DNA of 64,000 bases from Pirellulaceae bacterium. GTDB taxonomy: Bacteria; Planctomycetota; Planctomycetia; Pirellulales; Pirellulaceae. Below the pieces are notes generated by a model. It ran no database searches, had not been told where the DNA came from, and saw only the letters and a list, made by a program, of their open reading frames with translations. The translations under genes and the position numbers were made by a program. This document shows positions 8,362-32,826 of the stretch, one piece after another; within the stretch, counting starts at the first letter, position 1; each line of letters begins with the position of its first letter. Where the stretch lies: positions 66,120 through 130,119 of the forward strand of contig JAVJSD010000014.1 of the NCBI GenBank assembly GCA_040219575.1. Direction: 5' to 3'.

Positions 8362-8425
8362 GGTAGCGGAAGTCGTGAGACTTCCGAGGCGGCTTCGAAA
8401 AGTCGGAACTCTCACGAGTTCCGCG
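8362..8425 (+). repeat. REP-like double-hairpin element, copy A
   Basis: Sequence ggtagcggaagtcgtgagacttccga...ggaactctcacgagttccgc. Two 7-8 bp stems with 4-nt loops. Confidence 0.8.
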
Positions 8426-8448
8426 ACGCCGTGGCGTCGTGGCGCGGG

Positions 8449-9351
8449 TCAGGCGAAGGCTTCACGGAGCGACTGCAGGTGCTTCTTGCATTCACTGCGG
8501 ACGTCGCCCTGCTCCTCGTATTCCAGCACGATATAGCCGCGGTAATCGGCGGCGCGAAGAATCTCCGCCATGCGAGCGTAGTCGGCTGGCTCCTTGGCGC
8601 CGGCGCGGTCGACGACGACCTTGATCTGCGCGTTGACCGCATAAGGCGCGATCCTGGCCAGATCGGCGTAGGGATCCTCGGTGTGGAAATTGCCCGAGTC
8701 GAGATTCACGCCGAACCAGGGGCTCTTCACCGCGTGGACCAGCGACAGCAAGCCGTCGGGCGTGGCGGTGGGGCCGCCGTGATTCTCCAGCGCCAGGAAC
8801 ACACCATGCTTGCCGGCGTAGTCGCAGCACTCCTGCATCCCCTCGACCATCCACTTGTGGGCCGTCTCCGGAGCGACGTCCTTGGGCACATGCCCGGCGA
8901 AGATGCGAATCACCGGCGCGCCGAGGATGGCGGCGTTGTCGACCCACTTCTTGACGCTTTCGATTTGCTCGCGCCGCTGGTCTTCGTCGGCCTTGCCGAA
9001 GTCGTTCCCCACGGCCGTGCCGGAGACATCCAGCCCCAGCCGGAAGCACTGCTGCTTGAGGTCGCGGAGGTAGGCCGGTTTGACGTCGGCGGGAAAGTAG
9101 TAGCTCGTGAGTTCGGTTCCCTCGAGTCCGAATTCGGCGCAATCGTTGACGAAATCGGACATCGTCAGTTGCGGATCCTTGCCTCCCAGCAGGCTGCGGT
9201 AGCTGTAGGCCGCCAGGCTGAACTTGAATTTCGGCGTGCCGTTGCGCTTGATCGGTTCGATGGCCAGCGCGGGAGAGGACGCGAGCGCCGCTCCGGCGGT
9301 GAGCGCGGCGCATCCGGAGAGAAAACGGCGGCGGTCGATCGTGTGTTGCAT
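8449..9351 (-). CDS. sugar phosphate isomerase/epimerase (xylose-isomerase-like TIM barrel), Tat-secreted
   Basis: Tat motif RRRFLSG, and a TIM-barrel isomerase-like sequence (LENHGG, FHTEDP...). Confidence 0.75.
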   Translation of the reverse strand: MQHTIDRRRFLSGCAALTAGAALASSPALAIEPIKRNGTPKFKFSLAAYSYRSLLGGKDPQLTMSDFVNDCAEFGLEGTELTSYYFPADVKPAYLRDLKQQCFRLGLDVSGTAVGNDFGKADEDQRREQIESVKKWVDNAAILGAPVIRIFAGHVPKDVAPETAHKWMVEGMQECCDYAGKHGVFLALENHGGPTATPDGLLSLVHAVKSPWFGVNLDSGNFHTEDPYADLARIAPYAVNAQIKVVVDRAGAKEPADYARMAEILRAADYRGYIVLEYEEQGDVRSECKKHLQSLREAFA

Positions 9352-9460
9352 GGGAGAAACCCGTCAGCAGGTGGGCGGAGGAATTGTTGCAGTCCAGGGC
9401 CGCTATTGTCGCTTGCCCGTGGACCGTGTTCAACTGGTTCGCCGCCGCTCCGGAAAGTCT

Positions 9461-9556
9461 GTAGCGGAAGTCGCCAAACTTCCGACTGACCGTCTGTAGC
9501 GGAATTCGTGAGACTTCCGAGATCGATCGAAGCATCGGAACTCTGGCGAGTTCCGC
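9461..9556 (+). repeat. REP-like element, copy B (1.5 tandem copies)
   Basis: Sequence gtagcggaagtcgccaaacttccga ... gtagcggaattcgtgagacttccga ... ggaactctggcgagttccgcc. Confidence 0.8.
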
Positions 9557-9568
9557 CACACGAGTATG

Positions 9569-10552
9569 TTAGTTCGCGGCAGCGGCCGGTTTGCTCGGCT
9601 GAAATCGGCGTCCCAGCCGGCACATCGTCTCCGGCGTGACGAACGCCAGGCTGGCGATGAACATGATCGCGCAGTAGCTCACCAGCCCGGTGACCAGCGC
9701 CAGCGAGCCCCACATCAGCGCCGCCAGCACCAGCATGATCGGCCGCGCCGAGCGATTCCAAACCAGCAGTGGGAAGGTGAGATTCACGAGCACGACCAGG
9801 TGCGTCCAGGCGTTGAACACGAAGGGAGCACGGTGCAGGAAGGTGAGATTCACCATACGGGACTCCGTGCGGGCGATCAGCCACCACATGGCGTCGCCGA
9901 CCCACCAGGTGTCGCCGTTGAGCATCGTCAAGCCGATCAACACATAGAAGGCCGCCACGTGCACCTGCATCAGCCGGATCGCGACCGTGGCCCAACTCGA
10001 GTTGAGGCAGGCGTGCTGTGCTTCTCCCGCGGCGCTGTCGTTCGACGGCGTCGCCTTGCGCCTTCGCAACAGGCTGTCGACCGACAGATACGCGCCGGCC
10101 GGACCGATGCACAGATAAAGCAGCATCATGGTCAGCACCGGTTCGAACTGGGCCGTGATCATCGGCGCCCGGTGCACGTACGACAACACCAACAGCAGCG
10201 ACAAGATCGTGCTGGTGCGGGTGAACACGCCGGCCGTCATCGCCAGCAGCACCACGAAACCCAGCCCATGGATCAGCCACAGGTAGCCCGGCGCCTCGCT
10301 CAGATCCAACAGCGAAAAGCGCCAGGCGCCGCGATCGAAGCTCGCCAACGTCCGCAGCGACAGGATGCCGTGCGGGCCGAACCAGCGAACCAGATCCGTC
10401 GTGTGCGAGGCGTGGTACCAGAGGGCGGTCAGCCCGACCAGGATCCGCATTACGCACAGCGTCAGCGGATCGCTGGGGGTGAACCAGAATCGAGTCCAGG
10501 ATCGCCCGACCTGGTCGGGGAGTTGGGAGACTTCGGAGGTTGCGGAGGCCAT
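9569..10552 (-). CDS. HTTM-domain-like polytopic membrane protein
   Basis: The N-terminal LCVMRILVGLTALWY block and multiple TM helices resemble HTTM / DoxX-like proteins. Assigned by eye only. Confidence 0.5.
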   Translation of the reverse strand: MASATSEVSQLPDQVGRSWTRFWFTPSDPLTLCVMRILVGLTALWYHASHTTDLVRWFGPHGILSLRTLASFDRGAWRFSLLDLSEAPGYLWLIHGLGFVVLLAMTAGVFTRTSTILSLLLVLSYVHRAPMITAQFEPVLTMMLLYLCIGPAGAYLSVDSLLRRRKATPSNDSAAGEAQHACLNSSWATVAIRLMQVHVAAFYVLIGLTMLNGDTWWVGDAMWWLIARTESRMVNLTFLHRAPFVFNAWTHLVVLVNLTFPLLVWNRSARPIMLVLAALMWGSLALVTGLVSYCAIMFIASLAFVTPETMCRLGRRFQPSKPAAAAN

Positions 10553-30521: not shown

Positions 30522-30546
30522 CTTGCGGCGCCGACGCCCAGCGCGA

Positions 30547-31155
30547 TCACTTGATCGAAGGCAGCACGTGCTGCGATTCGAACGCGTCGATCTTGTCGGC
30601 GTGCTGGAGGGTCAGCGCGATGTCGTCCAGTCCGTTCAGCAGGCAGTGCCGGCGGAATTCGTCGATTTCGAAGGCGGCGGAGAAACCGGCGTCGTCGCGC
30701 ACTTCTTGCTTCTCCAGGTCGACGGTCAAGCGGTACGGCGCGTTGTCGGCGGCCCGCCGGAAGATCTCGCTCACCTGTTCTTCGCTGAGGCGGACCGGCA
30801 GCACGCCGTTCTTGAAGCAGTTGTTGTAGAAGATGTCGGCGAAGCTGGGGGCGATCACGCTGCGAAAGCCGTAGTCGGCCAGCGCCCAAACGGCGTGTTC
30901 GCGACTGCTGCCGCTGCCGAAGTTCCGTCGCGCGACCAGGATCGACGCCCCTTCCACCTCCGGTTGATTCAATTCGAAGTCCGGATTCGGATGCCCCACG
31001 CCGTCGTCGGTGTACCGCCAGTCGAAGAACAAGAACTCGCCGAAGCCGGTCCGTTCAATCCGCTTGAGAAACTGCTTGGGGATGATCTGATCGGTATCGA
31101 CATTCGCCCGATCCATCGCCGCAACGACGCCGGTATGGGTGGTGAAGGATTGCAT
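30547..31155 (-). CDS. leuD: 3-isopropylmalate dehydratase small subunit
   Basis: LeuD-type sequence ([20 protein letters not shown]). Confidence 0.9.
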
Positions 31156-31299
31156 AGGGATTTTCTCGATTCGATGTATTGGATTCGTGTTCGATGGAAG
31201 GCGTCGTCATCGCCCACCTTGCTGGCGCTACGGGCTCGACGGCGATTCCGAGCCGGCAGCGCCAGCAAGGAGGAATCGGCGTCGTAGCTGCGACAGATA

Positions 31300-32712
31300 C
31301 TACCTGTACTCCCACTCCCGCACGTCCACAAAGTGCCCCGCGATCGCCGCGGCGGCGGCCATGGCGGGGGAGACGAGATGCGTGCGGCCCCCCTTGCCCT
31401 GCCGGCCTTCGAAGTTGCGGTTGCTGGTCGAGGCGCAGCGCTCGCCGGGGGCCAGCTTGTCGGGGTTCATCGCCAGGCACATGCTGCAGCCCGCCTCGCG
31501 CCACTCGAAGCCCGCCTCGACGAACACCTTGTCCAGCCCTTCTTGTTCGGCCTGCCGCTTCACCTGACCGCTGCCGGGAACGATCATGGCGTTGGTCTTG
31601 CCGGAGACGTGGTGTCCCCGCGCCACCGCGGCGGCGGCCCGCAGGTCCTCGATGCGGGCGTTCGTGCAGGAGCCGATGAACACGCGGTCGACGGGCACCT
31701 CGGTCAGCGGCACGCCGGCCTTCAGCCCCATATACTCCAGCGCCCGCGCGGCGGAATTGCGATCGACGTCGTCGGCGAATTGGGCCGGATCGGGAACCGG
31801 CGCGGTGACCGGCGCCACCTGTCCCGGGTTGGTTCCCCAAGTGATCTGCGGCGCGATGTCGGCCGCCTGGAACACCTGCACGCGGTCGTAGGCCGCGCCC
31901 TCGTCGCTGGGCAGCTTCTCCCACTGGGCGACCGCCGCGTCGTAGTCCTTCGGCCCGTACTCGCGGCCGCGCAGGTATTCGAACGTCTTTTCGTCCGGCG
32001 CGATCATGCCGGCCCGGGCGCCCGCCTCGATCGACATGTTGCAGACCGTCATCCGCTCTTCCATGCTCAGCGCGCGGATAGCGCTGCCGGTGTACTCCAG
32101 CACGTAGCCGGTGCCGCCGTCGGTGGTGATTTCGCCGATCAGGTAGAGGATCAAGTCCTTGGCGGTGACGCCGCGGCCCAACTGGCCGTCGACCCGCAGT
32201 TCGAATGTCTTCGGCTCGTATTGCAGCAACGTCTGCGTGGCCAGCACATGCTCGACCTCGCTGGTGCCGATGCCGAAGGCCAAGGCCCCGAACGCGCCGT
32301 GGGTGGCGGTGTGGCTGTCGCCGCAGACGATCGTCATGCCCGGTTGCGTGATTCCCAGTTCCGGCCCGATCACGTGCACGATTCCCTGCCGCACGTCGTT
32401 CAGGTCGAACAAGCGGATGCCGAACTCCTTGCAGTTCTGCCGCAAGGCCTCGATCTGCTTGAGCGAAATCGGATCGGCGATCGGCAGCGAGCGGTCGGTG
32501 GTGGGAATGTTGTGGTCGGGCGTGGCCACCGTCCGGTCGGGCCGACGCACCGGGCGCTGGGCCAACCGCAGCCCCTCGAACGCCTGCGGGCTGGTCACCT
32601 CGTGCACCAGTTGCAGGTCGATGTACAGAATCGTCTGTTTTCCCGACTCGGCGTGAACGACGTGCTGGTCCCAGATTTTCTGGAACATCGTGCGGGGAGA
32701 GGAAGAAATCAT
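31300..32712 (-). CDS. leuC: 3-isopropylmalate dehydratase large subunit
   Basis: Aconitase-family LeuC sequence ([11 protein letters not shown]..., Cys ligands in [11 protein letters not shown] and [14 protein letters not shown]). Confidence 0.9.
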
Positions 32713-32760
32713 CGCAATGCTCGAATACGTAGGGGAAGGCGGGCGCCGGCTGAAGCCGTG

Positions 32761-32826
32761 TTGCGGAAGTCGCCAGACTTCCGAAGTCCACTGCGCAGTC
32801 TCGGAACTCAGGCGAGTTCCGCGACG
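32761..32826 (+). repeat. REP-like element, copy G
   Basis: Sequence gtgttgcggaagtcgccagacttccgaagtccactgcgcagtctcggaactcaggcgagttccgcgacgc. Confidence 0.8.

Follow-up and report, generated by a model that had tools for sequence, protein, structure and literature searches.

GTAG-tagged REP elements at seven intergenic sites of a Pirellulaceae contig and their link to RAYT-type genes in other genomes

In a 64,000-nt stretch of contig JAVJSD010000014.1 from a Pirellulaceae bacterium (this whole stretch is referred to here as the window), a short palindromic sequence recurs between 8.3 and 32.8 kb, at seven sites that are all intergenic, which raises the question of what kind of element it is and how its copies came to lie between genes. 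We consider that the copies are probably, with a rough probability of 0.85, GTAG-tagged repetitive extragenic palindromes (REPs), mostly arranged as REP doublets forming hairpins (REPINs), and that they are non-autonomous mobile elements of single-stranded DNA spread by a REP-associated tyrosine transposase (RAYT).

The repeat unit is 24 nt long and consists of a GTAG head, an 8-bp stem and a 4-nt loop (GTAG-CGGAA[G/C]TC-GNNA-GA[C/G]TTCCG), and 12 such units are recognisable in the window. A search with GGAAGTCNNNNGACTTCC allowing up to two mismatches gave 11 matches where 0.31 were expected, a number reached by none of 100 dinucleotide shuffles, and the 20-nt hairpin pattern with up to three mismatches gave 17 matches against 1.45 expected. 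A repeat finder blind to the motif returned the REP halves as families D5 and D6, with six copies each, and these were the sole interspersed repeats of the window besides an array of clustered regularly interspaced short palindromic repeats (CRISPR). The copies form a non-random sequence family, and the seven-site repeat described in the initial annotation was recovered in full, each site lying where it had been placed. For whole-genome scanning the suitable REP pattern is GTAGCGGAANTCNNNNGANTTCCG, with up to three mismatches. The copies and their gene neighbours are as follows.

8363-8427, plus strand: full head-to-head doublet (REPIN) with a 17-nt spacer; first unit 8363-8386 (+), GTAG-CGGAAGTC-GTGA-GACTTCCG; inverted unit 8404-8427 (-), stem CGGAACTC, head GTCG; between convergent genes for a HAD hydrolase (7667-8338, +) and an AP_endonuc_2 protein (8449-9351, -).
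9461-9559, plus strand: REP trimer, with units 9461-9484 (+) and 9496-9519 (+) in tandem and 9536-9559 (-); 10 nt past the stop codon of gene 9569-10552 (-) and upstream of gene 8449-9351 (-).
14929-14952, minus strand: intact single unit, GTAG-CGGAAGTC-GCCA-GACTTCCG, within site 14890-14952; its decayed partner at about 14890-14909 adjoins a glyoxalase start codon, and the site lies 42 nt past the SelA stop codon.
16537-16613, plus strand: doublet with an intact 3' unit (16590-16613, -) and a 5' unit (16537-16570) that contains an internal duplication of 10 nt.
18924-18947, plus strand: intact unit with a degenerate partner at about 18964-18987; the site (18924-18987) lies between a sulfatase gene (-) and the divergent genes that follow (+).
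27288-27350: full doublet of units 27288-27311 (+) and 27327-27350 (-), both with GTAG heads; between convergent genes for an alpha/beta hydrolase (26103-27227, +) and an NHL-repeat protein (27496-28518, -).
32760-32825: full doublet of units 32760-32783 (GTTG head, GCCA loop) and 32802-32825 (-; GTCG head, GCCT loop); between divergent genes for an aconitase-family large subunit (31300-32712, -) and an SPFH/Band-7 protein.

Two inverted units with their GTAG heads facing outward and a spacer of 15-18 nt make up the full element, and doublets or trimers occupy five of the seven sites. Elements of about 65 bp had been reported for all seven; this length holds for the full doublets, but 14929-14952 and 18924-18947 are single intact units, each beside a decayed partner. 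Likewise, the copy at 9461, read before as 1.5 tandem units, is tandem in part but proves to be a trimer with one unit inverted. Loops do vary as had been noted, with GTGA, GCCA and one GCCT in the window, although the supposed third type, tggc, is the reverse complement of gcca in an inverted unit. The head is GTAG in eight units, GTCG in two, GTGG in one and GTTG in one. All full doublets in the window are heterodimers that join a G-type arm to a C-type arm; the G-type arm is on the plus strand at six of the seven sites, a strand bias that is not significant (two-sided P ~0.13).

These features can be compared with the published definition of a GTAG-tagged REP (PMC6006769, after Di Nocera 2013). 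It asks for a GTAG or GTGG tetranucleotide 0-2 nt from the hairpin foot on its 5' side, a basal stem of 7-20 nt that is paired throughout, a loop of 2-5 nt, and G/C at three or more of the first four stem positions. In the window GTAG directly abuts the foot of the stem, the stem (CGGAAGTC/GACTTCCG) is 8 bp long and begins with CGGA, and the loop has 4 nt. The REP/BIME-type identity (BIME, bacterial interspersed mosaic element) first proposed for the family is borne out, both by this agreement and by RAYT-type genes in other genomes that are flanked by the same REP.

An inverted pair of REPs with a short spacer is expected to fold as one long hairpin if it is a REPIN. For four of the five full window elements folded as DNA, and for all those tested as RNA, the minimum-free-energy structure was a single long hairpin, interrupted in the doublets by two 1x1 mismatches. 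Predicted energies ranged from -18 to -24 kcal/mol for DNA and from -34 to -51 kcal/mol for RNA, with z-scores of -3.7 to -7.8, and only for 32760-32825 were two small hairpins the DNA optimum. The long imperfect hairpin predicted for the doublets is the REPIN conformation. The initial description as a double hairpin is thus right in that there are two units, each able to form a hairpin, but does not describe the fold that is predicted for most of them.

Gene calls based on third-position GC content (GC3) and Pfam matches place every one of the seven sites between genes. Five of them lie 10-61 nt past, or overlap, at least one stop codon, so that the earlier statement that most copies follow stop codons is correct for these, whereas the two at 18924 and 32760 fall in the promoter regions of divergent genes. 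At one of these sites the GTAG head of unit 16590-16613 doubles as a stop codon: the sulfatase gene 16610-18202 (-) ends on its TAG (16610-16612). Such positions, and the stability of the predicted RNA hairpins (down to -51 kcal/mol, z to -7.8), are also what would be seen if the copies were primarily host-functional RNA structures, 3'-untranslated-region stabilisers or attenuators, under selection on messenger RNA. A role of this sort is documented for E. coli REPs (discussed in PMC3733652), would be compatible with a REP origin, and gains some support from the G-U pairs occasionally present in the stems. It does not account for the two sites in divergent promoter regions, and it offers no reason for the unpaired GTAG head to be invariant or for the repeats to be linked to RAYT genes; moreover, a strong terminator-like hairpin belonging to the NHL-repeat gene itself separates that gene's stop codon from the doublet 27288-27350, and the REP units lack a T-run, with only one of the 12 flagged as terminator-like. 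We therefore regard a primary function in RNA as unlikely. The narrower proposal of an intrinsic (Rho-independent) terminator was rejected, because a T-rich tail follows only one of the 12 units and the sequence downstream is not T-rich. Rfam models gave no match in the whole window at the gathering score, and a permissive search (E up to 1) of 8300-9700 gave only chance-level microRNA-type matches.

The strongest terminator-like hairpin of the 8-28 kb interval stands between an A-run and a T-run at 27427-27463, just 3' of the NHL-repeat gene. Part of its stem (GGCCGCTAC/GTAGCGGCC) reads GTAGCGG, like the REP head with the first three stem bases, which could be either a coincidence or a remnant derived from a REP.

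Is the repeat peculiar to this genome? An exact-motif scan (20 specified bases) of species-representative genomes, 596 Gb in all, found the motif in more than 103 stretches where by our estimate about 4 were expected by chance, and these stretches come from at least about 54 species-level assemblies. Among the matches listed, about 47 assemblies carry the label Planctomycetota (Pirellulales, Gemmatales, Planctomycetales, Isosphaerales and one Kuenenia bin) and three are Verrucomicrobiota, two of them with several contigs, some of which are long. An Armatimonadetes bin and a Poribacteria bin are represented by a single contig each, and these two could be binning errors.

Relaxed matching among the same listed matches yielded 262 distinct units, in which the GTAG head and stem positions 1, 3, 4, 5, 7 and 8 are conserved at 97-99%. 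Stem position 6 is G in 52%, C in 34% and T in 13% of units, and its partner changes to match; compensated variation is likewise seen at position 2, and the loop consensus is G-Y-N-A. The stems had been called conserved, which applies to most positions but not to these two. In 78 distinct doublets from about 54 genomes, a model of two hairpins leaves 97.8% of stem cells paired, with occasional G-U pairs; the central pair is GC in 36, CG in 29 and UA in 9 for one unit and GC in 38, CG in 24 and UA in 14 for the other, and none of 500 shuffles reached the compensation observed. Since the central-pair positions were left free in the search pattern, this covariation is a fair test of the hairpin, which it supports. 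Covariation also bears on whether the copies are operators at which a palindrome-recognising DNA-binding protein co-regulates the neighbouring genes. The palindromic form, the strong conservation outside the variable stem positions and the two copies in divergent promoter regions are what such a protein would call for, but compensatory changes preserve pairing, not sequence, and so disfavour it. The neighbours are in addition functionally unrelated (HAD hydrolase, SelA, sulfatase, LeuC, NHL), most copies stand after stop codons, and the same motif flanks transposase genes in tandem arrays. We consider operator function very improbable.

Pairs of adjacent units in these genomes are head-to-head in 88 cases, tail-to-tail in 20 and tandem in 24, with a median spacer of 17 nt. 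When the 78 doublets are modelled as one long hairpin, the central stem position is mismatched between the arms in 58 and 56 of them; this position is usually discordant between arms, and most doublets are therefore heterodimers. The loops behave in the opposite manner and agree from arm to arm (GTGA/GTGA 28, GCCA/GCCA 24, GCAA/GCAA 7), their columns covarying as UA 37 / CG 35 and as CG 28 / GC 27 / AU 9. Such concordance is consistent with copying of the doublet as a unit. Within the window, the spacers 8387-8403, 9520-9535, 18948-18963 and 27312-27326 have in common a loose A-n-n-TCG-n-n-GAAA pattern, a likeness too weak for a test on so few copies, which suggests that in this genome the whole doublet was copied, and not the REP alone. 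The 5' flanks of the units show a pyrimidine preference at position -1 only (C 47%, T 29%), and no conserved cleavage dinucleotide was established in them.

If the repeats are REPs, a RAYT gene should be associated with them. A motif and tblastn search for such genes in the window and in 103 motif-bearing loci gave a single positive, locus L039, a metagenome-assembled genome of Verrucomicrobiia; the open reading frames (ORFs) between distant REP pairs in L049 and L020 were found not to be transposases. The L039 ORF has 195 amino acids, contains HWH and YIRENPLRAGL motifs and matches the NCBIfam model REP_Tyr_transpos ('REP-associated tyrosine transposase') at E=9e-10 and Pfam Y1_Tnp at E=5e-4. 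It is bracketed on both sides by the CGGAAGTC-type REP, and it ends within a GTAG head (2125-2128), whose TAG is its stop codon. It has 276 homologues, from Verrucomicrobiota, Planctomycetota and Kiritimatiellota, many of which are named 'REP element-mobilizing transposase RayT' by the Joint Genome Institute. The following loci of the Planctomycetes-Verrucomicrobia-Chlamydiae (PVC) group link a RAYT to a REP of this kind.

L039: 195-residue RAYT, CGGAAGTC-type REP on both sides.
L190: RAYT P0047, REP on both sides with an identical CGGAAGTC stem.
L191 (planctomycete-type neighbours): RAYT P0050, REP on both sides with an identical CGGAAGTC stem.
L192 (Akkermansiaceae): RAYT P0002, flanking stem CGGAATTC.
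L104: RAYT P0051, flanking stem CCGAAGTC.
L105: RAYT P0048, flanking stems CTGAAATC and CTGAAGTC.
L108, L109 and L161: RAYT loci with flanking stems CTGAATTC, CCGAATTC and CTGAACTC.

The stem variants at L104, L105, L108, L109, L161 and L192 are mostly compensated or paired through G-T wobbles. The three RAYTs with an identical flanking REP (L039, L190, L191) are 49-53% identical to one another. Next to more distant homologues (42-49% identity) the REPs again consist of GTAG, a C, an 8-bp stem and mostly a loop of the G-Y-N-A type, with stems that are unrelated, for example CGGCTTTC, CGGAAGCG, CCCTGAGC and CGGCGGAC. The TAG stop codon of the RAYT gene falls inside the GTAG head of the downstream REP at 13 of the 22 loci checked, including L039, L104, L106, L108, L109 and L111. 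At L190 (2525-2965 and 3596-3730) the RAYT gene is flanked by tandem 110-bp repeats, at least four of them upstream. Every such repeat pairs one CGGAAGTC-type REP with one CGGATCTC-type REP, inverted and some 60 nt away, a clustered heterodimer arrangement that differs from the short-spacer doublets of the window.

In an alignment of 24 homologues LMPDHxH, Q113, D118 and Y137-x-x-x-N141-P142 are invariant. The best solved structure for the family profile is E. coli TnpA_REP (4ER8), at E=4e-7, whereas IS200/IS605 transposases score 0.22 or worse (ISDra2 TnpA 0.22). The linked family has the HUH motif and the Y-x-x-x-NP tyrosine of RAYTs and is nearer to TnpA_REP than to IS200/IS605 TnpA, and it is a divergent branch of its family. 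Residues Q95, E100 (D in some subclasses), H101 and R104 of TnpA_REP are reported to contact GTAG (PMC6006769); their counterparts in the consensus of the PVC profile are Q, D, H and R. The nature of this enzyme also bears on an origin of the copies as miniature inverted-repeat transposable elements (MITEs) of a DDE insertion sequence (IS), such as the one at 34576-36120, which lies only 1.7 kb from the last copy and would fit their inverted termini (GTAGCGG...CCGCTAC). Each arm is itself a GTAG-headed hairpin, the hallmark of HUH/Y1 substrates, arms also occur singly, and the gene linked in nine other loci is of the Y1/RAYT type and not DDE. A MITE origin was rejected on the lack of target-site duplications, no direct repeats flanking 8363-8427, 27288-27350 or 32760-32825, and we rank it last of all the explanations weighed here, at close to nil.

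Enzymes of the E. coli TnpA_REP and IS200/IS605 type take folded single-stranded DNA as substrate and carry out HUH/tyrosine cleavage and joining. By analogy, a single-copy RAYT (TnpA_REP-type HUH/Y1) encoded elsewhere in the source genome would recognise the 8-bp hairpin and the unpaired 5' GTAG on single-stranded DNA, cut and rejoin at the folded REP, and so mobilise the window copies, slowly seeding them into gene-free gaps, chiefly at the 3' ends of genes. The positions read by the protein would be the head, stem positions 1, 3, 4, 5, 7 and 8 and the loop G and A, while stem positions 2 and 6 would only need to pair. Effects on messenger RNA 3' ends are possible at the level of the host but would be secondary and are not required. 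The prevalence of heterodimers may limit perfect long palindromes, which are unstable in replication, as has been suggested (PMC3733652), or may reflect distinct left and right ends.

Several points weigh against RAYT-driven spread of these REPs. The tblastn search found no RAYT gene in the 64-kb window, and the cognate enzyme is therefore assumed; the L039 protein falls below the curated cut-offs (38.6 bits against 80 for NF047646, 20.6 against 23 for PF01797); the mobility of the copies is likewise assumed; and, where REPs of this class would be expected in many, mainly extragenic copies per genome, the copy count covers the window only, 12 units at seven sites within 24.5 kb. Logan short-read contigs L107, L188 and L189 (run SRR26147846) are 100% identical to the window and end inside REP units (window 14931/14956 and 27328). 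Breaks at these points are as expected for a multi-copy repeat, and the same strain is present in that run.

How does the family relate to known systems? A superfamily of GTAG-tagged REPs, including the R. baltica families GTAG-20/21 and the O. terrae families GTAG-17 to -20, has been described (Di Nocera, De Gregorio, Rocco 2013, PMC3733652). Its members resemble the present REPs in the unpaired 5' GTAG, the 6-9 bp stem and short loop, the sub-families set apart by complementary stem changes, the head-to-head dimers (with spacers of 20-100 bp in that work) among which heterodimers predominate, the sites between convergent or co-directional genes, and the RAYT genes that are flanked by, and overlap at their 3' ends, the same REPs ('REPtrons'). 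Tail-to-tail dimers and homodimers are described there as well. The present REPs encode other peptides than the R. baltica and O. terrae families do. The CGGAAGTC stem was not found in the text or supplements of PMC3733652 (the main figure lay outside the search) and may equal one of its 24 families; elsewhere in the searchable literature the stem was not found either, the matches being unrelated and mostly biomedical. The REP/REPIN-RAYT system is therefore a known class, reported generally for Planctomycetes and Verrucomicrobia in 2013, of which this is at most a new sequence family.

REPIN-RAYT systems of Pseudomonas and Enterobacteria (PMC3116915, PMC5581495) share with it the inverted REPs that form a long hairpin, the singletons that resemble decayed doublets, the cognate RAYT flanked by REPs (here in relatives) and the loops that agree between arms; they belong to another phylum, and unlike them the present sequence is common to orders and even phyla. 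E. coli REPs and BIMEs likewise have a GTAG head with a hairpin and two REP types alternating in inverted order, but the E. coli stems are longer and bulged, and BIMEs have defined inter-REP motifs and integration host factor (IHF) sites where the spacers here are 15-18 nt long and only weakly alike. The PVC RAYTs align with E. coli TnpA_REP (4ER8) over HUH, Q95, E100 (D here), H101, R104 and Y-I-x-x-NP, and differ from it at W94, which is L or F in most PVC proteins.

The unusual point is the breadth and stability of the 24-base REP across the PVC group in comparison with the divergence of its transposase: the REP is kept nearly letter for letter, with two drifting stem positions, while the RAYTs are 49-53% identical. 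The pseudomonad and enterobacterial systems have been traced over about 100-150 million years within genera or families (PMC3116915, PMC5581495). With occurrences in at least 54 species-level genomes of Pirellulales, Gemmatales, Planctomycetales, Isosphaerales and Verrucomicrobiota, the present lineage might, on a doubtful view, count among the most widely distributed and sequence-stable REPIN-RAYT lineages known. If inheritance has been vertical, the partnership of REP and RAYT would be of phylum or superphylum age, with a DNA partner that evolves more slowly than the protein; if it has not, movement of REPtrons from one PVC phylum to another would far exceed what the 'vertically inherited' model allows for. 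The contrast between REP and transposase could serve, outside Proteobacteria, to date or to test the proposed persistence of REPIN-RAYT systems over long times by vertical descent. For annotation, copies are best masked as REPs or REPINs, which would keep ORF callers from reading through them, and they also break short-read assemblies.

The remaining question is why no copy follows the doublet 32760-32825, the last ahead of an IS/CRISPR region. The interval 34.5-64 kb contains no REP, and past 32825 there are only chance matches with three mismatches. Genes for PSD/PSCyt-domain proteins, DUF1552, a sulfatase, SelA and an aconitase-family (LeuCD-like) pair mark the backbone as that of a planctomycete. 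The 34.5-64 kb interval has a GC content of 0.55-0.63 against about 0.64 elsewhere, with a markedly lower GC3, and encodes a DDE IS, a beta-lactamase-like protein, PIN and ARPP proteins, a WYL regulator, Cas3 and a Cas4/Cas1 fusion; it has indeed the look of foreign or mobile DNA. Its features are as follows.

34576-36120: DDE transposase (IS), DDE_Tnp_1_4 at E=1e-40, where GC and GC3 begin to fall.
52203-61532: genes ahead of the CRISPR array, encoding a WYL/HTH regulator, Cas3 (HD and helicase), several unassigned ORFs and a Cas4/Cas1 fusion.
62171-64000: CRISPR array running off the end of the window, at least 26 repeats, each about 37 nt long (GTGTCCGCTTCGTTGATGCCGAAAGGCGTTGAGCAC) and recurring about every 72 nt.

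The genes from 52203 and the array together form a CRISPR-Cas locus, type I-like, within the low-GC part, and the DDE transposase is a plausible left edge of the acquired region; a transfer RNA scan for the island boundary found no tRNA gene in the whole window. We infer that the interval lacks copies because it was acquired recently and its residence has been too short. The initial annotation had taken the absence of the repeat as independently marking a foreign island. No copies were indeed found in this mobile-looking part, but under uniform placement simple arithmetic gives P ~0.009 for a distribution with every site inside the first 32.8 kb, and with seven sites this is suggestive and not independent proof. 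REP absence is accordingly a reasonable secondary marker of recently acquired DNA.

Elsewhere in the window, a 93-nt tandem duplication (11687-11879; 2.1 copies, 77% identity) lies inside the minus-strand ORF 11566-12216 and is rich in CAG and CCG codons, giving a repetitive, low-complexity protein segment.

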